A DNA stretch of 64,000 bases, taken from contig NZ_QHCS01000001.1 of assembly GCF_003545875.1 (NCBI RefSeq), positions 1,267,337 to 1,331,336 of the forward strand, in the 5' to 3' direction. Both the position numbers and the translations under genes were made by a program. A model generated the notes under the pieces. The model was not told the origin of the DNA, made no database searches, and saw nothing but the letters and a program-made list of their open reading frames with translations. Source of the DNA: Leptospira stimsonii (GTDB taxonomy: Bacteria > Spirochaetota > Leptospiria > Leptospirales > Leptospiraceae). Positions within the stretch are counted from its first letter, which is position 1. Each line of letters opens with the position of its first letter. Shown piece by piece: positions 4,886 through 64,000 of this stretch.

Positions 4886-5869
4886 TTACTGAAAAATTTC
4901 CTCCAAGACTTTAAAATACCAACACGAACCATTCCAGTTCTCAAGAAAACCATTATGACCTCCGAAATTTTGAATCGAAATTCGAACATTTCGATTCGGG
5001 TGAAGTGCGAGAAAACTCTCCCCACGAATGATTGGATCGTCTTTCGAAGTGACTATTGTTGTCGGAGTCAAAATTTCAGAGAGTTCCCGCTCCCCCAATG
5101 TGTAAGTTCCAAAGTAATGATCCAAATCGCGAAAATCGTCCGAAGATTCGATCAATTTTTCCGTCATCTTCATCACCGAACGCTCCTTAAGAATCTCTTT
5201 ATAAGGAACGATTGTCGGAAAATGATGCTGTTTCTTTTCAATGGATTCCTTCCATTTCTTAAGAAAATAGCGACCGATGATAAGTTTCTTATCCATTAGA
5301 ATCGTTGCATCTTTTGGATGAATCGCTGGAGAAATCGCAATACAATGTTTCAATTGATTCAGCTTTTTCTCAGAATGAGAATGAACTCTTGCAATTCTCA
5401 GAGTGAAATTTCCACCTAAGGAAAATCCTATAATAAAAACAGGAACATTCTTTTCTGCAAGAAAGCTGGCTTTTCTCACCGCCTCATAGGTCTCTTCGAT
5501 TAGGCTCCCATTGAAGGGGGCCGGATTGAGATGGTGCGTATCCCCATGATCCCTATAATTGAGGCGAAAGATGTCGTATCCTTGCTCATAAAAGCGATGC
5601 GAAGTTCTCAGAATATAAGTTGATTTAATGCTCCCTTCCCAACCATGAAGAAGAATTAGGAGTCCCTTCGTTTTTTGCTTCTTCTGTTTGCTAAATGAAC
5701 TTTCTAATTTCACTCCTTTGCCTACATCCAGGATCATCCTCTGCGCATTTTTTAAGAAGGGCATTTCCTTCGGTAAATTCCAAGCTAAAGATGCAAGTGC
5801 GGTTTGAATAAAAGGATATTTTAGGAGTCCCTTCGGATCGAATTTTGGAGTCTTTAGGTTTTGCAACAT
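4886..5869 (-). CDS. Alpha/beta-hydrolase, YheT-like (COG0429)
   Basis: 'LLILLHGWEGS' oxyanion region and 'GFSLGGN' nucleophile elbow (GxSxG), length ~330 aa. Confidence 0.75.
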   Translation of the reverse strand: MLQNLKTPKFDPKGLLKYPFIQTALASLAWNLPKEMPFLKNAQRMILDVGKGVKLESSFSKQKKQKTKGLLILLHGWEGSIKSTYILRTSHRFYEQGYDIFRLNYRDHGDTHHLNPAPFNGSLIEETYEAVRKASFLAEKNVPVFIIGFSLGGNFTLRIARVHSHSEKKLNQLKHCIAISPAIHPKDATILMDKKLIIGRYFLKKWKESIEKKQHHFPTIVPYKEILKERSVMKMTEKLIESSDDFRDLDHYFGTYTLGERELSEILTPTTIVTSKDDPIIRGESFLALHPNRNVRISIQNFGGHNGFLENWNGSCWYFKVLEEIFQ

Positions 5870-6071
5870 ACGAACATTTGTTAATTTGGAATGATTTGGA
5901 AAAGTCTTTTTAAATCATAAAAATCGATTATTCATTCCAAAAGAATTCTTTAGGAATTATAACTTGATCTCGAAATCGAAAATTCAAACCGAAAAAAACT
6001 GGCTTTTAGAACTCTCTAAAAAAAAGATACTGAGTCCAGATAATTTCTAATATTCGGAGCACAACAACAAA

Positions 6072-6797
6072 GTGAAGAATCTACTCGTGCATTTGTTTTC
6101 TTTTCAGATCCATTCCAAAATTGGATTCTTAATTCTTATTTTTTTTCTTTCTTGCAAAAGTTTCGTTCTGAATGGTGTGAGAGGCGGAGCTTTTACTACT
6201 TCTCCTAACGGAACCCAAAAGGATTCAAAAGTTTTAGAAATTTCTTGTAAGCCAATTCTCAAGCAAACGCAGTGGTATCTCCTTTTTGGTTCCTTTCCGA
6301 TAAATCGTGTGAACTCCTCGGAAATTCTTCCTGATACGAATGAAAATTATCGAGTAACGATCAAAACCACTTGGATGGACGGTCTCCTGAGCGTTCTTCT
6401 TGGAATTGCCGCTTCCGTGACTCGAAAAACTATCGAAGTGGAAAGTTGTGATGGCGGAGAAATTGCGTCTCTTAAGAATTCTCCGGTTCCAATGGACAAA
6501 ATGGAAACCAAGGCGGAAAATCCAAAATGGAAAGAAGAATTCTTAAGACAGAACGAAAAACAATGGAAGGATGAAGTTCAAGAACGTTTCTTCTCCGAGA
6601 AAGAGGAAGAAGTGGAATCTATCTGGAAAAAAGAAATGAGAAATTCTAAAAATCTTTCCGTTCTCTTTCTGAAATCCGGCGAGATTGTAAAAGGAAAAGT
6701 GACCCGGATCGATGGTGAGGGTGTTAAGCTCTTCTTCAAAGGTCAGGAGAAGACGTTTAAGCGCGCCGATGTCCTAAAAGTCCGCTTTCAAGATTAA
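6072..6797 (+). CDS. Hypothetical secreted/lipoprotein
   Basis: N-terminal hydrophobic signal sequence with 'FLSC' lipobox-like site. No other motif. Confidence 0.4.
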
Positions 6798-6811
6798 GGA
6801 GAATCATTTCT

Positions 6812-7498
6812 ATGTTTAATTTTCGGATTCTCGCGCTTCGATTTTTTTTCTCTCTCTCGATCTTGATTCATTCCGCTTGTTATCTGAATCCTTATTTTCG
6901 AGATCTTGTCTCCCAGGAAGACAAAAAAGAGTCTCCTCTGGCGCTCCTTTTACTTTTTGTAGGAGCTCCTATTATCAAGGGGGATGTTATCTTCTTTCCT
7001 CAAACGGGTCTTTCTTGGATGCGTTGCACACTTGGTCAAACTTTTGATCCTTCCACAAATACCTGTACGACAATCTCCGTCGCTCCCATCTATTGTTCTT
7101 CCTTGGATAATCAGTGCAATGGAAATCTTTTAGGCGGAGTTCTCTCTTCGGGGCCGGCCTTTGATGCCTGCGCAGGTTTTAGTTCTTCCAATGCCACTGG
7201 ATCTTGGAGAGTTCCCACGCACTTAGAGTTGAAGTCGATAGTTTCCTGTTCGAATGGGACGGATCTAAAGAATTTCACGGACACTCAAACTTGCGGAACT
7301 GGTTTCGATGTCCCTACGATTCGTAAGGATTGGTTTCCAGGAACTCCCACAAATAATCCGATTGAATTTTGGTCTTCCACGAGCGATCCCTCGAACGCCA
7401 CCTTTGCCTGGAAAGTGAACTTTAGCACAGGAGCGACGAATCTGACCGCTGGGAAGAATTCTTCTGGATACCTTCGTTGTGTCGCAGGCTCCCCTTAA
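6812..7498 (+). CDS. Lipoprotein with Lcl C-terminal-like DUF1566 domain
   Basis: Signal peptide with Cys (IHSAC). C-terminal '[12 protein letters not shown]...EFWSSTSD...YLRCVAG' is typical of the DUF1566 proteins expanded in Leptospira. Confidence 0.6.
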
Positions 7499-7504
7499 GA
7501 AGGC

Positions 7505-7690
7505 GGACTTTGCGGGAACTCTACACTTTTTCGGGTGAAATCCCCTCCTTAAGTGTATTTTTTCTTGACAGGAAACAATTGAATCAAAAATTGTTTCCTG
7601 TATGGAAACAAAAAATACTGTACGTGTTTCCGGGGTGGCAAACTCAAAAGACGTAAAAGCGAAGAGTTCCCGCAAAATTCTTCTCCTAGC
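7505..7690. repeat. Second inverted pair of the dispersed motif (ttgcgggaactctac at 7505; agagttcccgcaaaattc at 7670) bounding ~165 bp
   Basis: Reverse-complement copies flanking an intergenic segment between the DUF1566 gene and the RND pump. Confidence 0.45.
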
Positions 7691-8037
7691 CCTTCTTTTT
7701 CTCAACCTCTCACTCGTTTCCCAGATCAACGCTTTCCGCTTTCTTAAAAAAAACGAAAGAACAGGAAATGTTCCACACACAAACTCGGAAACGATTTTCG
7801 GCATAAGAACATCCTCTTCCGAGTATATTCGAAAAATTAAATATTCTAAAATACAAAAAATTCTCCGCTTAAAACAACACGCACTGGCTCAAATACTGAA
7901 TACAAAAAAATTACCAAATGAAAGAAGAGGATCCGATCTAAAAGTATCCTCCGAATTGAAGTATTCCGCTTCTGAAAGTCCTTTTTGTTAAAATATTACT
8001 TTCAGAACTTATAAACTACCAATAGGAGTTCTATTCG

Positions 8038-11000
8038 ATGAACTTTGCAGCACTCTCTATCAAGAGACCCATTTTTATAACCTGTACCGTCTTGCTGATT
8101 CTTGTAGCTGGATATCTCTCATTGAACAAGTTGGGAGTGGACCTATTCCCTAACATCACGATTCCGGTCGTTACGGTAACTGTTCCATATCCGGGAGCGG
8201 CGCCTAACGAGATTGAGACGCTCATCGCAAAACCAGTGGAAGATGAATTGTCGACGATTTCCGGAGTCAAAAGGGTAAAGTCCATCTGTAACGAAGGAGT
8301 AGGGACGGTCGTTGTAGAATTTACTCTGGAAACGGACGTAAAGTATGCGGAACAACAAGTCCGAGATAAAGTTTCCAGCGTGAAACCGAAACTTCCCGAT
8401 GACGCCAAAGAACCCGTCATTCGAAGAATCGATCCCGCTGATCAGCCGATTCTTATCATTGCCCTCAAAGCTGAACTTCCGGAAGCAGAACTTTATGATA
8501 TAGCGAACGAAGAAATCAAACAAATTCTCTTAACAACCAAGGACGTAGGGAACGTAAACATCTACGGAGGACGAAAGCGTGAGATTCACGTGGAATTGGA
8601 TCGTCAGAAGCTGAAAGAGCATATGATTCCTGCTTCCGTTGTTTCTAATCGTCTCGCTTCGGGAGGAATGAACATTCCGGCCGGAAAGGTTAGTAAGACG
8701 GATAAGGAACTTGTTTATAGAACTATCAACGAATTTCATTCTCCGCAAGAAATCAGAGATACTCCGATTTCGCTTTTTGGAAACGAGGTTCCGGTAAGAA
8801 TCGGCCAACTCGGAGAAGTAAAGGATACGGTGGAAGACGAAACTTCTCGTGCTTACTTTAACGGAAAGAAGGCGGTCTTTCTTCTCGTCTATAAACAATC
8901 CGGTTCTAACACCGTGGCCGTTGCACAAGCGGTTAAAAAGAAGGTTTCCGAAATTAACGTCGATCTTGCAAAAAGAAACGGATCTCCGGAGCTTACGACC
9001 GCGAACGATTCTTCCATAACGATCGATAACAATATCTACGACGTAAAGGAAACGATCATCATCGGAATCATTCTCACGATCATTGTCGTATTATTGTTTT
9101 TAGGAAGCGTTCGTTCCACGTTGATCACCGGTTTGGCGCTTCCTAACTCTCTTCTCGGTGCCTTTATTCTTATGGCCATTGCTGGATTTACGGTGAACAT
9201 CATGACTCTTCTCGCCTTGAGTCTTGCAGTCGGTCTCCTCATCGATGATGCGATCGTAGTGCGTGAGAATATTTTCAGACACAGGGAGATGGGAAAGACC
9301 GCGAGAGAAGCTTCCATCGAAGGGACCAAGGAAGTGACGCTCGCAGTAGTCGCGACTACGATGACAGTGATTGCGGTTTTTATGCCGATCGCGTTCATAA
9401 GCGGTGTCGTTGGTCAGTTCTTGAGGGAATTCGGTCTCACGGTTTGTTTTGCGCTTCTTATTTCTCTCTATGATGCGCTGACGATCGCTCCGATGTTGTC
9501 CGCGTATTTCGGCGGAAAGATCGGCAACCACGGACATTCTTCTTCTCCTTCGCATACGATTCCCGATTTATCGACTCAAGTAGAGAAAGGAAAAAAGAAG
9601 GGCAAGAATAGTATTGCGACTACGACTTTGGAGGAAATCGCCTATTCCAAAATCCGCACTCAGAACAAGATCAGCAAAGGATGGATCGTAAGAATTTTTT
9701 CTCCGATTCTAACCCTTCTTGGAAAACTGGAAACTGGACTCGATTCTATTTTAAGTATCTTTAATGTGTTTCAGTCCTGGCTTGAGGATCGTTATGCTTC
9801 CGTCCTTAGATTCACCCTTAGAAGGCCGATGTTGATTTTATCCGGGGCGGTTTTGATATTCATAGTCAGTTTGGGGTTAACGAAATTCATTCCAAAGACG
9901 TTTCTTCCCGCTCAGGATGAAGGAAAATTCTCCGTAACTCTGGACATGCCTCCGGGAACTTCAGTCGCAAAGATGGCGCAGGTAGCGCAGGAAGTGGATC
10001 AAAAGATCCGTTCTTACAAAGAGATCAAACTCGTAGCGATGTTTAATACCAATCGAAACACGAATATGTTCGTAGAGATGGTTCCTTCCAAACAACGGAA
10101 GATGAACACGACGCAGTTTAAAGAATTTCTTCGCAAAGAATTGAGCGTTTTCTCTTACGCGAATCCGATCGTCAAAGACATAGACAACGTGGGAGGAGGA
10201 CAACGACCTTTTACTCTGATCGTCAGCGGACAAAAAGGGGAAGTCGTGGAAGATTATGCGAAGAAGCTTTTTACGCGCCTTCAAAAATCTCCCGCGCTTC
10301 TGGACGTAGATACGAGTTATCGTGCGGGCGCTCCCGAGTTTCGAGTGATACCCGATCGTCAGATGGAAGTTCTTCTCGGCGTTCCTGGAACCGTGATCGG
10401 AACCGAACTTCGAACTCTTGTGGAAGGAACGACTCCAGCGGTTTACAGAGAGAACGGAGTGGAATACGATATTCGTGTTCGTTTGAAGGAAGGTCAAAGA
10501 GACCTCAAAGAAAACTTTTATAGTTCCTTCGTTCCGAATTTTAACAATCGACTGATTCCGATTCAGAATGTCGCGAAGGCGGAGGAAACGACCGGACTCG
10601 CTACGATCAACCGTCTCAATCGAAACAAATCCGTTGAAATCTACGCCGATGTAAATCCGCAAGGTCCGGGAATGGGAGGAGCAATGGAAGAAGTCGCAAA
10701 GATCACCCAAACCGAACTTCCTCTTCCTGCGGGAGTTAAGATCGGTTATACGGGACAAGCGGAGAGTTTTAAGGAGATGGGTACCTCGATGGCGATTGCG
10801 ATGGGCCTTGGAGTTCTCTTTATCTATATGGTTCTCGCTTCTCTTTATGAAAGTTTTATCACCCCGATTGCGATCATGCTCGTATTGCCTCTCGCTCTTT
10901 GCGGCGCCTTTATCGCGTTATTCCTGACTCAGAAATCTCTGGACATCTTTTCGATGATCGGGCTCATCATGTTGATCGGCGTGGCTACGAAGAATTCGAT

Positions 11001-11428: not shown

Positions 11429-12043
11429 ATGAGTGAGATGGAGCAGGACGAAGTAAAACTCCGAATTATGGAGAAGGCTCTTGAGCTTTTTCTAAAATAC
11501 GGCTATTCTAAGACGCGGATGGAGGAAATTGCGAGGGTTCTCAAGATCTCCAGAAAAACTCTCTACAAACATTTCGAAAATAAAAATCATCTCTTATTCG
11601 AAATTCTCAGCGCCAAACACAAAAGAATGAGTAAGAAAATGATGGAGATCAGCGAAGACGAATCTCTTTCCGTTCATGAAAAGGTGAAGGCGATCAACGA
11701 ATTCAAGGTCAGCCAGTTCCCCGCAGGCGCAAACGAATTCATTTTGGAAATCAGAGACCAGGCTCCCGATCACTACGCTTACATTCGAGAAGTAAGAACG
11801 GAATCCATCTCCAAATCGATTCAGGCCCTTATCAGACAAGGAATCGAAAAGGGTGAGATTCGAAGCGACGTGAATACGACGATCTTCGCAGCTTTGATCA
11901 ATTCTGCGATAGAGATGACGGCAACTCCGGAACTACTTCTCAACTCACCGTACTCTATGGTTCAATTACAACAGGAAATCCATCATATCCTTTTTTATGG
12001 AATCATGAATCCCGTCGCCGAACCGGTCAAGATCGCAAAGTAA
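11429..12043 (+). CDS. TetR/AcrR-family transcriptional regulator
   Basis: HTH '[26 protein letters not shown]'. Size ~205 aa. Start chosen at the first ATG (MSEMEQ). Confidence 0.85.
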
Positions 12044-12048
12044 GAATA

Positions 12049-13356
<1,308 letters not shown>

Positions 13357-18818: not shown

Positions 18819-20624
18819 CTATTTTCGATCGATCACAAGAAGTGTAACGTCGTCTTCGAATTTGGGACGGTTACAATATTCGATTGCATCCTCGACGATC
18901 TGAGCGGAAGACTCTTTTACGTTCTTTGAAATCGATTTTCGGATGGAAAGAGAAACCAATTCTTCGCTATATCTTTTGGATCGATCCTCGGAAGAATGTT
19001 CCGAAAGACCATCCGTATACAGAACGAGTCTATCTCCCGCACAAAACATCGTCGAATTCTCCTCGAAAAATAGATCCGGGATCACTCCGATAAGTTTTCC
19101 TTTTGTCTCCAACGGGATCATTGTGTCCGTCGCGTTTTGTAAAAGTAGCGGATGGTTGTGGCCGGCGTTGGAAAAAAGAATCGTATTCTTCTCCGTATCG
19201 ATCACACAATAGAATGCAGTTACGAAGTTTCCGGCCATCTTATTGTTCAAAGCGTGATTCAGTCCCGTAAAAAAACGGGAAGGACTAGAGAGTGTTTCCT
19301 TATCGTAAGTCGAGATGATCGTGTTCATAACTGCGGCGATCACGGATGCTGAAAGCCCGTGACCGGAAACGTCCGCGATGAGAAAACCCGTTCTTTCCGT
19401 ATCCAACTTGAAGACGCTATAAAAATCCCCGCCGACGTTCGAGTAAGGAATATGTTGCGAGCCAACGTCTAGACCCTTGATATAAGGGATCGCGGTCGGA
19501 ATCACCTTTGACATCACTTCTCTTGCTCTTTGCAATTCCCGATCGGAATCCACAACCCTGTGAAAGAGGTCCGCGTTCTTGATCGTGACCGAAAGTCGAT
19601 TTGCGATCGCTCCCAACATATCGAGATCGTTGTTGTGAAATGCGAAACCGGAATTCTTACTATTGACGCTGATGACTCCGAGGAGCTCGTCCCTATAGAT
19701 CAGAGGAGAAGAGATCAAAGAGTTTGCTTCGAACTTATACTTTGCATCTTGATTATAACGTTTGTCTTCTTCCAGATTTTGGATCAGAAGATTTTTCCTT
19801 TCTTGAGCGACCCAGCCCGCGATTCCTTCACCGAAAGGAACCACGATCGAATGGACAGCTTCTTTCGGAATTCCTTTTGCGGCTAGGATTCTTAAGGTTT
19901 TACTTTTGTGATCCGCGAGATAGATCGTCCCAGTTCTTGCTTCCAAAAATTCCAAGATTTTATCCAAGACCCAGTTGCCGAGTTCGTGAATGCTCTTTTC
20001 GGAAACGATGAGCTTTTCGAATTCATAAAGAAGGGAAAGTTCTAAGATTCTTTTTTTGAGATTATCGTGGATCTTCGCGTTTTGGATCGCGATCGCGGCG
20101 ACTTCGGACAAGGAGGAAAGATAATTCAGATCGGAAGAATCAAAAGCCCTCTCCTTTGTCTTGTTGAGAATTTCCAGAGTTCCGATGATCTTGTCTTCCA
20201 CAAAGAGGGGAACGCAAACAAGGGAACGGGTTCGATAACCGGTCTTCTTATCCCAATCTTGATTGAATCTCGGATCGGAATACGCGTCTTCCAGGATGAT
20301 CGCTTTTTTCTCTTTTGCGACCCAGCCGGCGATTCCTTGTCCCATATCGAGGCGACCGTATTTTTGAATGATTTCCCCTTTCTCACCAAGAGCGACTTCG
20401 CAATATAAGAATTCTCCGGTTTCGTCGAGAAGAAAGAGGGAACTCGCTTCGGCTTCCAAGAGATCCTTGGAATAGAGCATGATCAAAGGTAAGAGCTGAT
20501 AAAGATCCAAATTCGCATTTAAGATCGTACTCGTATTGAGAATACTCTTCAACTTTTGAAATTCTAAATCAGCGTGAGTCATAGAGATTTCTGTCAATGC
20601 TACAGGAAATAGAAGGTTCGTCAA
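18819..20624 (-). CDS. GAF-GAF-PP2C (SpoIIE/RsbU-like) serine phosphatase
   Basis: Two GAF-like regions (e.g. 'LGEKGEIIQKYGRLDMGQGIAGWVAKEKKAI...') and a C-terminal SpoIIE domain ('GGDFYSVF', 'ADVSGHGLSASV', 'LYTDGLSE'). Confidence 0.85.
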   Translation of the reverse strand: MTNLLFPVALTEISMTHADLEFQKLKSILNTSTILNANLDLYQLLPLIMLYSKDLLEAEASSLFLLDETGEFLYCEVALGEKGEIIQKYGRLDMGQGIAGWVAKEKKAIILEDAYSDPRFNQDWDKKTGYRTRSLVCVPLFVEDKIIGTLEILNKTKERAFDSSDLNYLSSLSEVAAIAIQNAKIHDNLKKRILELSLLYEFEKLIVSEKSIHELGNWVLDKILEFLEARTGTIYLADHKSKTLRILAAKGIPKEAVHSIVVPFGEGIAGWVAQERKNLLIQNLEEDKRYNQDAKYKFEANSLISSPLIYRDELLGVISVNSKNSGFAFHNNDLDMLGAIANRLSVTIKNADLFHRVVDSDRELQRAREVMSKVIPTAIPYIKGLDVGSQHIPYSNVGGDFYSVFKLDTERTGFLIADVSGHGLSASVIAAVMNTIISTYDKETLSSPSRFFTGLNHALNNKMAGNFVTAFYCVIDTEKNTILFSNAGHNHPLLLQNATDTMIPLETKGKLIGVIPDLFFEENSTMFCAGDRLVLYTDGLSEHSSEDRSKRYSEELVSLSIRKSISKNVKESSAQIVEDAIEYCNRPKFEDDVTLLVIDRK

Positions 20625-20813
20625 GGGTTTGGAAATATCCGGAAGACTGAAAAACTATAATTCGCTTAACGATAAACGACTTCGGTGGTTGACGTTTTAT
20701 TTCGGTTTAAAAAAAGGGATTTCGTTTCAGAAACAACAAAGCGCCAAAATTCCGAGAAAAGTATTTTTTGAAAGGAAGAAACTTCAACGAATTGAAACGG
20801 TCTCATTAGAGTA

Positions 20814-60633: not shown

Positions 60634-62109
60634 CTATTTTTTACCCAGAAGGAAAAAGGTTCTCATCGGACCCTTTCCTTTGATCTCGATGATTCCTCTG
60701 TCTTCGAATTCGAAAAGATCTTTGAGAGCCTCATACGTAGCTTCGGAACAATTGATCTTTCCCGGTTGACCGTGGGATTCCATTCTGGAAGCGGTATTCA
60801 CCGAATCTCCCCAGAGGTCATAGACGAACTTGTTTTTTCCGATTACGCCGGCGACGACGTCCCCCGTGTGAATTCCGATTCGGATATTGAATTCGTATTT
60901 CCAAGACTTCTGAAGATCTTTCAGACCGGAAATCATTTCGATTCCGGCTAACGCGATCTTTTCAGCGTGATCGGTCGTGGGGTTCGGAATTCCTCCCGCC
61001 ATCATATAACAATCCCCGATCGTCTTGATCTTCTCGAGTTGATATTTGCTCGCGATATCGTCGAAACATGTGAAGATCTGGTTTAGAATTTCGACCAATT
61101 GATTCGGGGTCGGGATCTGAGTCGAAAGTTTCGAAAAGCCCACGATGTCCGCGAAAAGAACGGTGGAGTTCGGGATGTAATCGGCGATCACTCCTTCGCC
61201 GCTCTTCAATCTTTCCGCGATCGCTTTGGGAAGAATGTTGAGAAGAAGGCTTTCCGATTTCTGTCTTTCTTTTTCAAGACCTTCGTTTAACACGTTGATC
61301 TTTTCCAAAGAATCCTTGAGTTCTCGGTTTCTTTTGGAAAGAGTTTTGTAGGCGTCCGCGTTATCAACTCCGATTGCGACGTAGTTTGCAAGAGTTCTTA
61401 AAATGCTGAGTTGGTTTTCGTTAAACGCGTTCTTCTCGTAACTCTGAATGGTAAGAATTCCGATAAATCTTTCCTCCACCTTAAGGGGAAGATACACGAC
61501 GGAACTGGTCTTTTCCCCGAAATGTTTCTGGATCGGGGAAACATACTGTGGAAAATCTTTTTCGAGATCGTTCGTGATCAGTTCCTGGTTTTGATTATAA
61601 CAAAAGGAAGAAGGATTTTCTTCGGACAAAGAATCCACAGAAGGAGCGGGAGTATAACGACCTTCGATCAGGCTGAACTTATATTTAATCTCATTCTTAC
61701 CTTCCTCCAAAATCCCAAACGCGAGAATGTTCATAGAGACCATCGACTTCGTGTTTTCATAAACGGAAGTGAGAATGATTTTCGGTTCCAAACTCGCGGT
61801 GATCATCTGACCGATCTCGCTCAGCTGTTTTAGATTTTGATAAGAGGAAACCAATCTTTGGTTGGAATCTTGAAGTTCGGTTTGAGTTTTGATCAGACGA
61901 TTCTGAGTCGAATCCCCGATTTTCATCAGTTTCGAAGATTGTTTTAAAAGCGATTCGTACGCGTCTCCGATTTTTTTTAATTCCTGGATCAGATCGTCTT
62001 TCTGAAGAGAATCTTTTTTATCAAGGGTTTCGTTGACTTCGTTTAATAACTGAAACTCGTTTTCAAAAAAAGAATTAAAATCCTTCTGCGCTGGAGACGC
62101 TGGTTCCAT
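60634..62109 (-). CDS. Class III adenylyl/guanylyl cyclase with N-terminal coiled coil and GAF domain
   Basis: CHD motifs 'VLFADIVGFSKLS', 'KIKTIGDCYMMAGG', 'IRIGIHTGDVVAGVIG', 'YDLWGDSVNTASRMES'. The substrate-specifying Lys in 'KIKTIGD' favours ATP. A GAF-like segment precedes the CHD. Confidence 0.88.
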   Translation of the reverse strand: MEPASPAQKDFNSFFENEFQLLNEVNETLDKKDSLQKDDLIQELKKIGDAYESLLKQSSKLMKIGDSTQNRLIKTQTELQDSNQRLVSSYQNLKQLSEIGQMITASLEPKIILTSVYENTKSMVSMNILAFGILEEGKNEIKYKFSLIEGRYTPAPSVDSLSEENPSSFCYNQNQELITNDLEKDFPQYVSPIQKHFGEKTSSVVYLPLKVEERFIGILTIQSYEKNAFNENQLSILRTLANYVAIGVDNADAYKTLSKRNRELKDSLEKINVLNEGLEKERQKSESLLLNILPKAIAERLKSGEGVIADYIPNSTVLFADIVGFSKLSTQIPTPNQLVEILNQIFTCFDDIASKYQLEKIKTIGDCYMMAGGIPNPTTDHAEKIALAGIEMISGLKDLQKSWKYEFNIRIGIHTGDVVAGVIGKNKFVYDLWGDSVNTASRMESHGQPGKINCSEATYEALKDLFEFEDRGIIEIKGKGPMRTFFLLGKK

Positions 62110-62136
62110 GAATTGGTCCTCGGCCGAAGAGCGGTC

Positions 62137-62517
62137 TTATTTGTAGGATTTGAGTTCGAACGGGAGAGAAAGATCGGACGAAAATTCTTCACCGGTTTCC
62201 TGCATATCGTCGTCGTCTTCTTTATACAACCAGAGGACTTTAACCTTTCCGCTTTGATCGTGATATTTCTGAAGGGAGTCCAAAATGTCCATGATCACTT
62301 TCGAAGAGCTAGTATTAAAATAGTCCAACTGAAATTTTACTTGGATTGCGGTCTTATTTCCCATCGTGGAGTTGAGCCAGTCGAATACCGGCTTGTAGAA
62401 AGCGATCGCGTTTTCCGGATAAGATTCTCCGATGATTTCCACCACTCCTTTTTCAGTGTCCAAAATAACCTCTGGAGAAGTTTTGGTCTGTTGGATATGT
62501 AAAGATTCCATTCTCAA
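62137..62517 (-). CDS. DUF1987 (SiaC-like) partner-switch protein
   Basis: 126 aa. 'PEVILDTEKGVVEIIGESYPENAIAFYKPVFDWL' matches the DUF1987/SiaC family. Start overlaps the upstream stop by 4 nt. Confidence 0.7.
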   Translation of the reverse strand: MRMESLHIQQTKTSPEVILDTEKGVVEIIGESYPENAIAFYKPVFDWLNSTMGNKTAIQVKFQLDYFNTSSSKVIMDILDSLQKYHDQSGKVKVLWLYKEDDDDMQETGEEFSSDLSLPFELKSYK

Positions 62518-63068
62518 TTTTCCTTTGTGAAGTATGCAGAAAGTGTAAAAAACGAATGCTTATCGTCTACGGGTGAGATAACGTAAGTCAACGGTCCGTC
62601 CGACTTCCTTGCGATATCAATCAGTCCGACTCCGGCGCCTTTGCTATCGTCCGGCCTGTCCGAGCGCAACTGCTGTTGATAGTAAGTTTTCAGCTCGTCT
62701 CTCGACATAGAATTTATCTTCTCGCATTTTGCTTTTAGCGAATCGATTTTCTCGTTTAGTACAAGGTTCCCGGAAGAAACATTATAGCCAATCGATTTTT
62801 CATCGACCATAATGATACCGACTCCTCCTTCTCTTCCGTCTTCCTGAGCTCTTCTTTCCGCCGAATAGTGTAACATATTCTGTGCCAATTCGATAAAAAC
62901 GGCGAAGATTTTTTTGATTTTCGATTCCGTGCTCAAGGAAGTTCGGATCATTGACCCGAATTCGGTAAGGACTTCCTGCGAAAGTCGGCCCTTAAAGGAA
63001 ACAATTAATTGATAATCGCAGGCCTCTTTATAGTGCTTAAACAGGTCTACGGACTTGTTTTCCATCAT
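62514..63068 (-). CDS. SiaB/RsbW-like HATPase_c serine-threonine kinase (anti-sigma-factor-like)
   Basis: 'FIELAQNMLHYS' N-box-like (ExxxNxxxH). 184 aa. 'GAGVGLIDIAR' G-box-like. Confidence 0.7.
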   Translation of the reverse strand: MMENKSVDLFKHYKEACDYQLIVSFKGRLSQEVLTEFGSMIRTSLSTESKIKKIFAVFIELAQNMLHYSAERRAQEDGREGGVGIIMVDEKSIGYNVSSGNLVLNEKIDSLKAKCEKINSMSRDELKTYYQQQLRSDRPDDSKGAGVGLIDIARKSDGPLTYVISPVDDKHSFFTLSAYFTKEN

Positions 63069-63105
63069 TTCTTTTTAACATACTCCCTATAGTTTCGTGT
63101 ACAGC

Positions 63106-64000
63106 TCAGATCCGAAATCCGATCAAAGTTATGTCATCTCTTTGGGATTCTCCAGCTTGATGTCCGTCTAAAAAGGCCGCGAGTCTTTCTTTTTGTTCGT
63201 TGGCCGGCAAGGGAGAAACGCCGTGTAATTGGGCGATCATTCCTTTGCTGGCGATTCTTTGTCTTTGAGGATTCGGTTGATCCATGTATCCGTCCGTAGT
63301 AAGATAAAACATGGTGGGTTTTCCCTTATCCAGTTTTACTTCGTGGGTCGTATAGGTTCTTGAATCTTCTTTTTGTCTTCCACCGATCGAATGTCTGTCT
63401 CCTTTGATCTCTTCTATCTTACCGTCTCTGGAAAAGTAGAGAGGTCTCTTGGCGCCTGCAAAATAAACCTTATCCGTCTCGATTCTACAGAAGCAGATGT
63501 CCATTCCATCTACCGAGTTCGTATCTAAAGAATCTTGTTTTAAGGCTTGTCTCACATTCTTATTCAGATGTTCCAAAACCTTACCCGGATCTTTGATACC
63601 CGCTTCGTTTACGATTTGATTGAGCAATGTATTTCCGATCATTGACATTAAAGCGCCTGGGACCCCGTGTCCAGTACAATCGACTGCGGCTAGAAAAATA
63701 GATCCTTCTTTTTTACTGAACCAGTAGAAGTCTCCCGAGACGATATCCTTCGGTCTGAAGAGGACGAATTGTTCCTTTAGATTTTTTGCAAGAAGAGTTT
63801 CGGAAGGAAGAATCGCCTGTTGAATATTCAATGAATATGTGATACTGTCCGTGATGTGTTGGTTCTTTAATCCGAGGTCCGCGTTCGCCTGAGCCAACTC
63901 TCTCGTTCTTTCCCTTACTTTCTCTTCCATATTAGAATAGAGTAAAGCGTTATCGATGGAAATCGCCGCTTGCGAGGAAAGAATGTTCATGATCTGAAGT
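63106..64000 (-). CDS. PP2C/SpoIIE-family phosphatase (SiaA-like), N-terminus beyond window edge
   Basis: 'VSGDFYWF', 'AVDCTGHGVPGALMS', 'TTDGYMDQ' and 'DDITLIGFRI' PP2C motifs. The reading frame is still open at 64000, so the protein is truncated by the window. Confidence 0.75.
   Translation of the reverse strand, partial: LQIMNILSSQAAISIDNALLYSNMEEKVRERTRELAQANADLGLKNQHITDSITYSLNIQQAILPSETLLAKNLKEQFVLFRPKDIVSGDFYWFSKKEGSIFLAAVDCTGHGVPGALMSMIGNTLLNQIVNEAGIKDPGKVLEHLNKNVRQALKQDSLDTNSVDGMDICFCRIETDKVYFAGAKRPLYFSRDGKIEEIKGDRHSIGGRQKEDSRTYTTHEVKLDKGKPTMFYLTTDGYMDQPNPQRQRIASKGMIAQLHGVSPLPANEQKERLAAFLDGHQAGESQRDDITLIGFRI

Follow-up and report, generated by a model that had tools for sequence, protein, structure and literature searches.

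The last genes of a 64,000-nucleotide (nt) stretch of the Leptospira stimsonii contig NZ_QHCS01000001.1 (the window, whose first letter is position 1) probably encode a SiaABC-type partner switch whose output is a class III cyclase forming cyclic AMP (cAMP) instead of the diguanylate cyclase SiaD. From the sequence evidence below we give this reading a probability of about 0.7. Four consecutive open reading frames (ORFs) on the minus strand span position 60634 to the window end and encode, in reading order, a PP2C phosphatase, a SiaB-family kinase, a SiaC-like protein and a GAF domain-containing cyclase (Table 1). In Pseudomonas, SiaB phosphorylates SiaC on T68 and SiaA removes the phosphate; unphosphorylated SiaC alone binds the SiaD stalk, activating SiaD (PMC7278518, PMC8457831). 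The original prediction, made from the letters of the window, was that such a switch is wired here to a nucleotidyl cyclase. It is supported by the domains, the acceptor Thr, the ATP-type residues of the cyclase, the synteny and a SiaD-type motif on the cyclase stalk.

All four genes are present where they had been placed, and Pfam and NCBIfam confirmed their domains. No GGDEF domain was found among the ORFs of the 64-kb window. The second gene had been taken for a HATPase_c_2 kinase; it is a predicted protein kinase, but its Pfam family is DUF6272 (the SiaB family). It scores 189 bits against NCBIfam SiaB_fam_kinase (cutoff 85), and its sole relative in the PDB is SiaB (6kko_A, E 1e-20), with which the ATP-binding motifs E..QN and GAGVGL..IARKS align. 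The SiaC-like protein matches its Pfam family at E 8.5e-44 (148.5 bits, cutoff 24.5) and the PDB entries of SiaC (6kkp/6k4f) at E 3e-20. Against the NCBIfam SiaC equivalog it scores 115.5, under the cutoff of 150, and as judged from these profiles it is a member of the SiaC family, not an equivalog. The conserved phosphorylatable Thr expected of a DUF1987 protein is there: the predicted phospho-acceptor T67 (codon 62311-62313), within YFNTSSSK, aligns with SiaC T68, which belongs to an N-T-S motif where helix alpha2 begins. The NTSSSK motif varies little or not at all among 24 diverse SiaC homologues. Of the 14 residues through which SiaC contacts SiaD, nine are the same in the Leptospira protein. 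Neither STAS nor HATPase_c_2 gave a Pfam match at E <= 0.01, so by sequence this does not appear to be a STAS/RsbV-type switch. The window SiaC protein shares 99% identity with an L. adleri entry.

The phosphatase frame remains open up to base 64000 and the gene is therefore cut by the window edge, as had been noted. Contig L001, identical across the shared 297 residues, carries the full gene of 1784 amino acids (aa). The sole PDB match of the PP2C domain is that of SiaA (6k4e, E 6.5e-48), and the metal-binding motifs GDFY, VDCTGHG, TDGYMDQ and RDDIT are conserved with it, as is the preceding helical linker. The NCBIfam SiaA profile gives 233 bits over its positions 384-657; this is short of the whole-protein equivalog cutoff of 700 because the N-terminal part is Pkinase-AAA_16-GAF, not transmembrane/HAMP. 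The full-length protein in L001 has a Pkinase domain (16-262), an AAA_16 domain (297-485), a long helical region, a GAF domain (1360-1503) and a SpoIIE domain (1585-1783). The Pkinase-like domain keeps the HKD, DFG and SPE motifs and lacks the Gly-rich loop, and the NTPase domain has a Walker A motif. Judging by domain content, the window phosphatase and Pseudomonas SiaA share the catalytic end only and differ greatly in their sensor parts. In L. interrogans ATCC 43642 (locus L010, 1064-6406) the phosphatase frame is broken into two ORFs (1633 and 132 aa), by a frameshift or a sequencing error in the draft.

The genes are closely spaced, with gaps of 37 nt between phosphatase and kinase, 2 nt between kinase and SiaC (from the ATG at 62511) and, as previously stated, 27 nt between SiaC and cyclase. 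The 4-nt overlap that had been listed with the kinase gene belongs to the kinase and SiaC genes, and there only if the SiaC gene starts at the alternative TTG at 62517 (ORF 62137-62517). The start is most likely the ATG at 62511, because it aligns with the N-terminus of Pseudomonas SiaC and the same start is used in called orthologous genes. A scan of the coding strand of the cluster found no terminator-like or promoter-like site, the counts being lower than in shuffled sequence. This fits a single transcription unit, for which it is weak evidence. A 129-aa ORF on the plus strand (62113-62502), antisense to the SiaC gene and slightly longer, misled a greedy ORF caller and is almost certainly no gene.

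The residues of the cyclase point to cAMP as its product. The metal-binding Asp residues (D321, D366), the transition-state residues (N438, R442) and an adenine-specifying pair, K362 (61024-61026, in KIKTIGD) and D431 (60817-60819, in YDLWGD), are all invariant in 41 orthologues with identities down to 50%. The Lys of KIKTIGD had already been read as a sign of cAMP; with D431 it makes up the ATP-specifying pair, and the two align with the specificity Lys/Asp of the AC9 C2 domain. Guanylyl cyclases have Glu/Cys or similar residues at these positions. The catalytic domain could be aligned with both halves of the mammalian adenylyl cyclases (C1, C2) and with mycobacterial Cya/Rv1625c, and the signalling-helix region aligns with the helical segment before the catalytic domains of Rv1625c/Cya and guanylyl cyclases. 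The best Foldseek match was 5o5l (46% identity), followed by 5o5k (47%, target template modelling (TM) score 0.92), with target TM-scores of 0.89-0.92. A homodimeric adenylyl cyclase is thus a straightforward prediction from the sequence. An AlphaFold2 (AF2) model built on the 41 orthologues (mean predicted local distance difference test score 85.9) has a helix at 16-30, a 69-residue helix (37-105) that runs into an alpha/beta GAF domain (109-230), a second long helix (231-292) and the catalytic domain (308-490). Leptospira stimsonii entries match the cyclase with 100% identity, and together with the SiaC match to L. adleri this places the window in the P1 clade of Leptospira.

It is the N-terminus of the cyclase that would tie it to the switch. 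Here lies a predicted SiaC-docking module made of a short helix with F15..E18..LL, a loop and a long stalk helix. A homologous N-terminal region of about 85-90 aa is common to the proteins downstream of SiaC, whatever catalytic domain follows. Its pattern is a short helix F..E..hL, a loop, and a stalk helix Y-x-x-L-L-[KR]-Q-x-x-K-L-x-[KR]-I-G-D-S-x-Q-x-[KR]-L, the stalk motif always being 50-70 residues from the N-terminus. The sample comprised 171 genomic and metagenomic loci (1.7 Mb) surrounding SiaC homologues; frequencies given below describe this sample and are not a census. In these loci the module begins every enzyme gene directly after a SiaC gene, be it a cyclase, GGDEF enzyme, histidine kinase, PP2C or Pkinase. 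A hidden Markov model (HMM) of the module matched 40 proteins out of 6496 ORFs, about half of them outside the model-building set. All were on the same strand as SiaC and no more than 1.9 kb downstream of it, and 30 of the 40 start between -4 and +101 nt of the SiaC stop. Within the window the HMM matched the cyclase only (1/829 ORFs), and no Pfam family was found for the module. E18, K60, D66 and L72 are invariant in the 41 cyclase orthologues.

Searched against all PDB sequences, the module profile had as its best match SiaD itself (7e6g_A), at a marginal E of 0.044. The alignment falls exactly on EKVARISDRYQQMMRD, the second SiaC-binding motif of SiaD, and places K60-LMKIGD66-STQ69 of the cyclase on K77-VARISD83-RYQ86, with the invariant module residues K60, D66 and Q69 at the positions of SiaD K77, D83 and Q86. 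In the SiaD crystal structure the contacts to SiaC are made by K77, R80, I81, S82, D83, Q86 and D91, and SiaC places its T68 between the stalk helices (eLife PMC8457831). In the AF2 model the motif is borne by the 69-residue helix, which puts the predicted docking site on the N-terminal stalk upstream of the GAF domain. A second 'KIGD' at residues 46-49 was rejected as a docking motif, since its conservation does not extend beyond the P1 clade and the Gln is missing. A phmmer search of 1.84 billion representative proteins with cyclase residues 1-100 gave 36 matches, of which 33 were at the N-terminus of the matched protein. They include about 10-11 histidine kinases, five class III cyclases, two GGDEF proteins, two Pkinases and one PP2C. 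In four of the five cyclases, which are short forms, the catalytic domain follows the module directly. The module profile against a 5.8-billion-entry word-indexed database returned nine short fragments only.

Table 1. Features of the putative switch cassette and of its cyclase in the window.
Feature	Position	Strand	Basis
SiaA-type phosphatase, C-terminal 297 codons (GAF end, helical linker, PP2C/SpoIIE)	63106..64000	-	Pfam SpoIIE E 2.9e-19
SiaB-family protein kinase, 184 aa	62514..63068	-	Pfam DUF6272 E 3e-45
SiaC-family regulatory phosphoprotein, 124 aa from ATG 62511	62137..62511	-	Pfam SiaC/PF09345 (formerly DUF1987)
Cyclase gene, GAF + Guanylate_cyc	60634-62109	-	Pfam Guanylate_cyc E 1e-63
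Predicted SiaC-docking module of the cyclase, aa 8-91	61837..62088	-	module HMM, SiaD profile match
Docking-module core, K60-L-M-K-I-G-D66-S-T-Q69-N-R-L72	61894-61932	-	alignment with SiaD
GAF domain of the cyclase, aa 110-250	61360..61782	-	Pfam GAF_2 E 5e-11, GAF_3 E 2.5e-9
Long signalling helix from GAF to catalytic domain, aa 251-305	61195..61359	-	AF2 helix; weak HNOBA match 259-301
Class IIIa adenylyl cyclase catalytic domain, aa 313-488 + stop codon	60634..61173	-	Pfam Guanylate_cyc

The contacts between SiaC and the stalk also appear to change together, and three of the crystal contact pairs show complementary double changes. The pair SiaC103-stalk91 is R-D in Pseudomonas, D-K or D-R in most other protein pairs and D102-K74 in Leptospira. 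SiaC79-stalk74 is D-R in Pseudomonas and K/R-D/E in some lineages, and SiaC114-stalk77 is D-K in most pairs and hydrophobic-hydrophobic in small proteins of the Bacteroidota. Across four contact pairs in 38 distinct protein pairs, complementary residues fill 94 of 152 cells, as compared to 74.3 +/- 3.8 in random re-pairings (none of 5000 partner shuffles reached 94), a figure that is supportive only, as it is inflated by relatedness among the pairs.

The pairing of SiaC and cyclase is conserved in relatives, as the wiring to a cyclase would lead one to expect. The four-gene cassette is found in the P1 clade (L001; L. interrogans, L010; L. alexanderi, L011), in a metagenome-assembled genome (MAG) of the P2 clade (L012) and in the S clade, where the saprophyte L. 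ryugenii (L003) has a 4-nt overlap between the SiaC and cyclase genes. The cassette also occurs, with differing flanking genes, in Leptospiraceae MAGs and metagenome contigs (L091, L092, L093, L172). Distant homologues of the GAF-cyclase, some with TPR (about 40% identity; L173, L174), were set aside; they have no SiaBC neighbors and no module, and the link to SiaBC is thus specific to the Leptospiraceae family of about 485 aa. In L172 a channel gene with Ion_trans and cNMP_binding domains (11443-12768, opposite strand) lies three genes downstream of the cassette and is a candidate cAMP receptor.

Almost certain orthologues of two of the genes have been described in L. interrogans. Lourdault et al. 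(2016, PMC5100919) list lic12324 as PK, AAA_16, GAF, SpoIIE and lic12327 as GAF, AC/GC (adenylyl/guanylyl cyclase). Transposon mutants in both lose in vivo fitness, lic12327 mutants are attenuated in hamsters, and lic12327 is reported to be induced at physiological osmolarity (PMC5100919). The two are treated there as separate signalling genes, with no mention of lic12325, lic12326, an operon or a partner switch (PMC5100919). They are almost certainly the orthologues of the window phosphatase and cyclase, because the architectures are identical, the locus tags are three apart and the transposon insertion coordinates fit the geometry of the L010 cassette. The shared loss of fitness fits a phosphatase that acts positively on the cyclase.

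We propose that the SiaB-family kinase would phosphorylate the SiaC-like protein on T67, and that the PP2C end of the 1784-aa cytoplasmic STAND-type sensor would dephosphorylate T67 once the sensor is activated. Unphosphorylated SiaC would then dock via its alpha2/alpha3 face, with N66-T67-S68 between the helices, onto K60-LMKIGD66-STQ69-NRL72 on the N-terminal coiled-coil stalk of the dimeric cyclase. Docking may shift the register of stalk, GAF domain and signalling helix and so alter the activity of the catalytic dimer, and a phosphate on T67 would block docking sterically. The giant phosphatase would serve as signal input, with the GAF domain of the cyclase as a possible second input. By analogy to Pseudomonas, the same switch logic most likely operates on the window cyclase, and the effect of SiaC is most likely activation.

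Several points weigh against a SiaC-controlled, cAMP-forming output. The profile match to SiaD is marginal, and the position of SiaD S82, a contact residue, is Gly in the window cyclase. Since the stalk of the cyclase is joined to a GAF domain, where that of SiaD connects straight to the catalytic domain, binding could have a different outcome. Polarity could account for the phenotype that the lic12324 and lic12327 mutants have in common. One of the module-bearing proteins, a 321-aa protein with module and cyclase domain (L175, 370-1335), has no SiaC gene directly upstream, so cyclases with the module need not be encoded beside the switch genes. In L. perolatii (L013) and L. fletcheri (L090) the locus has intact phosphatase, SiaB and SiaC genes but lacks the cyclase; other P2 species still have one, with 68% identity. 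In these cyclase-less species either SiaC has another target or the trio persists without one, perhaps as a decaying system. The gene upstream of the short cyclase in L175 is a cut-off ORF, membrane permease-like by eye, and a convergent glyoxalase-like gene lies 37-38 nt after SiaC in the two cyclase-less loci (L013, 1041-7375; L090, 1040-7375).

The docking could be the same and its sign the opposite, with SiaC inhibiting the cyclase, the phosphatase turning cAMP synthesis off and the kinase turning it on. We consider this unlikely, since SiaC-SiaD, the sole characterised member, is an activating pair, and the phosphatase- and cyclase-gene mutants of L. interrogans share their loss-of-fitness phenotype, an argument that polarity confounds. 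It retains some weight because in the AF2 model a GAF domain and a second long helix separate the stalk from the catalytic domain, so that the sign does not simply carry over from SiaD. N-terminal domains restrain many class III cyclases, which also speaks for inhibition.

A different target for SiaC, be it another module protein or some other partner, would leave the cyclase merely co-transcribed and regulated by its own GAF domain only. The trio of L. perolatii and L. fletcheri would suit such an arrangement, as would the many SiaB-SiaC pairs of the Bacteroidota with no module-bearing enzyme nearby. We regard it as quite improbable for the window cassette, because the cyclase has the docking module with its four invariant residues, the module occurs only downstream of SiaC in the 1.7 Mb of sampled loci, the contact residues covary and the cassette is kept together in Leptospiraceae despite different flanking genes. 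Although some class III enzymes with canonical residues show relaxed specificity, cyclic GMP or another cyclic nucleotide as the product, or a catalytically dead enzyme, is very improbable given that K362/D431, both metal Asp residues and N438/R442 are present and invariant and that the adenylyl cyclases Cya/Rv1625c come closest among solved structures (46-47% identity).

The preferred reading, a SiaABC-type switch acting on an adenylyl cyclase, can be compared to several known systems. SiaABCD of P. aeruginosa (PA0172-PA0169) has the same gene order of phosphatase, kinase, SiaC and output in one tight cluster. The two share a SiaA-type PP2C, a SiaB-family kinase, a SiaC with the same acceptor Thr and 9/14 contact residues, and an output enzyme that, like SiaD, is predicted to be an obligate dimer with the stalk motif K-x-x-[KR]-I-[SG]-D-x-x-Q. 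They differ in the output itself, a GAF class III adenylyl cyclase in Leptospira and a GGDEF diguanylate cyclase in P. aeruginosa. The Leptospira stalk has one docking motif and leads into the GAF domain, whereas that of SiaD has two and leads directly into GGDEF. The phosphatases differ as well, a 1784-aa cytoplasmic Pkinase-AAA_16-GAF-PP2C protein versus the membrane HAMP-PP2C sensor SiaA of Pseudomonas. The STAS-type switches on diguanylate cyclases (HsbA-HsbD in P. aeruginosa, BgrV-BgrR in S. meliloti) and the RsbU/V/W system likewise combine a phosphatase, a kinase and a small phosphoprotein whose phosphorylation state decides its partner. In contrast to these STAS/RsbW switches, SiaC is a separate sequence family, SiaB is a DUF6272 protein, and an adenylyl cyclase is the predicted target in place of a sigma factor or diguanylate cyclase. 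SiaC has been reported to be structurally STAS-like, a similarity at the level of the fold only (PMC7647112, PMC8457831). With mycobacterial Cya/Rv1625c and the mammalian membrane adenylyl cyclases (class IIIa) the window cyclase shares the catalytic domain, the preceding helix and the six canonical residues; unlike them it is soluble, with the SiaC-docking stalk and GAF domain replacing the six-helix membrane anchor.

Database annotation already labels the individual genes as SiaB family and SiaC family. Full-text literature searches found no paper tying DUF1987/SiaC, DUF6272 or SiaABCD to an adenylyl cyclase or to Leptospira, and the SiaD structure paper merely conjectures that DUF1987 proteins modulate 'adjacent proteins' (PMC8457831). 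The components are thus already known; the literature searched describes neither their wiring to cAMP nor the docking module that the outputs share. If the reading is right, this would be the first partner-switch (Ser/Thr phospho-switch) route to cAMP in bacteria. It would join lic12324 and lic12327, unexplained fitness and virulence genes, in one pathway with residues that can be mutated (SiaC T67, cyclase K60/D66/Q69), and it offers a mechanism, open to testing, by which a cyclase that Leptospira is known to need for virulence could be controlled.

Beyond Leptospira, the SiaB-SiaC pair is nearly universal in the sampled loci (174 SiaB and 180 SiaC matches), and the gene directly after SiaC varies. 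Histidine kinases occupy this position in Kapaibacterium, Ignavibacteriota and Opitutales, GGDEF enzymes do so in several phyla, and in L098 (7389-8582) the module is fused to a Hanks-type Ser/Thr kinase domain. Two proteins from the database-wide search, P0285 and P0286, appear to be of the same type as the L098 protein. A gammaproteobacterium, Thiomargarita sp. (MAG, L027, 97-5060), encodes SiaB, HAMP-SpoIIE, SiaC, a module-SpoIIE protein (334 aa) and a module-Guanylate_cyc-Hemerythrin protein (555 aa), the last with Asn and Thr at the two specificity positions. From its gene content this locus is an independent link of SiaB/SiaC to a module-bearing class III cyclase. In a neighbor-joining tree of SiaC without branch support, the cyclase-linked SiaCs of Leptospiraceae form one clade and that of Thiomargarita lies elsewhere.

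The docking module in these neighborhoods suggests that SiaB/SiaC controls at least five kinds of signalling enzyme in a modular way, which would turn a Pseudomonas-specific story into a general design principle. At somewhat short of an even chance, the helix-loop-stalk module of about 85 aa may be a general, portable 'SiaC-receiver' domain for dimeric signalling enzymes, with the Leptospira cassette as the cAMP branch that explains the virulence phenotypes of lic12324 and lic12327. If so, any dimeric enzyme gaining the module would become controllable by the SiaB/SiaC Thr-phosphorylation switch, and SiaBC would be a widespread, unrecognised plug-in signalling architecture with a logic comparable to that of receiver domains. 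The module also provides a sequence signature to predict SiaC targets in any genome.

Most SiaB-SiaC pairs of Bacteroidota have neither an adjacent enzyme gene nor a module-bearing gene nearby in the sampled loci. Such pairs (e.g., L028, 5086-10538) lie between an RlmL-like methyltransferase gene and a convergent TerB-ABC transporter gene of about 1020 aa. Guanylate_cyc-HD genes 2.3 kb upstream of SiaB in Bacteroidales (L071, L134) lack the module and were not taken as linked. Three Bacteroidia MAGs (L035, L043, L074) have a tandem SiaB-SiaC-SiaB-SiaC arrangement at about 5450-8340, preceded by a SpoIIE protein of about 910 aa and followed by two small proteins (150-175 aa) that are little more than the docking module. 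In the window itself, a second and weak PP2C-like match (E 2e-9, PP2C HMM) lies away from the cassette at 18822-20654 on the minus strand.

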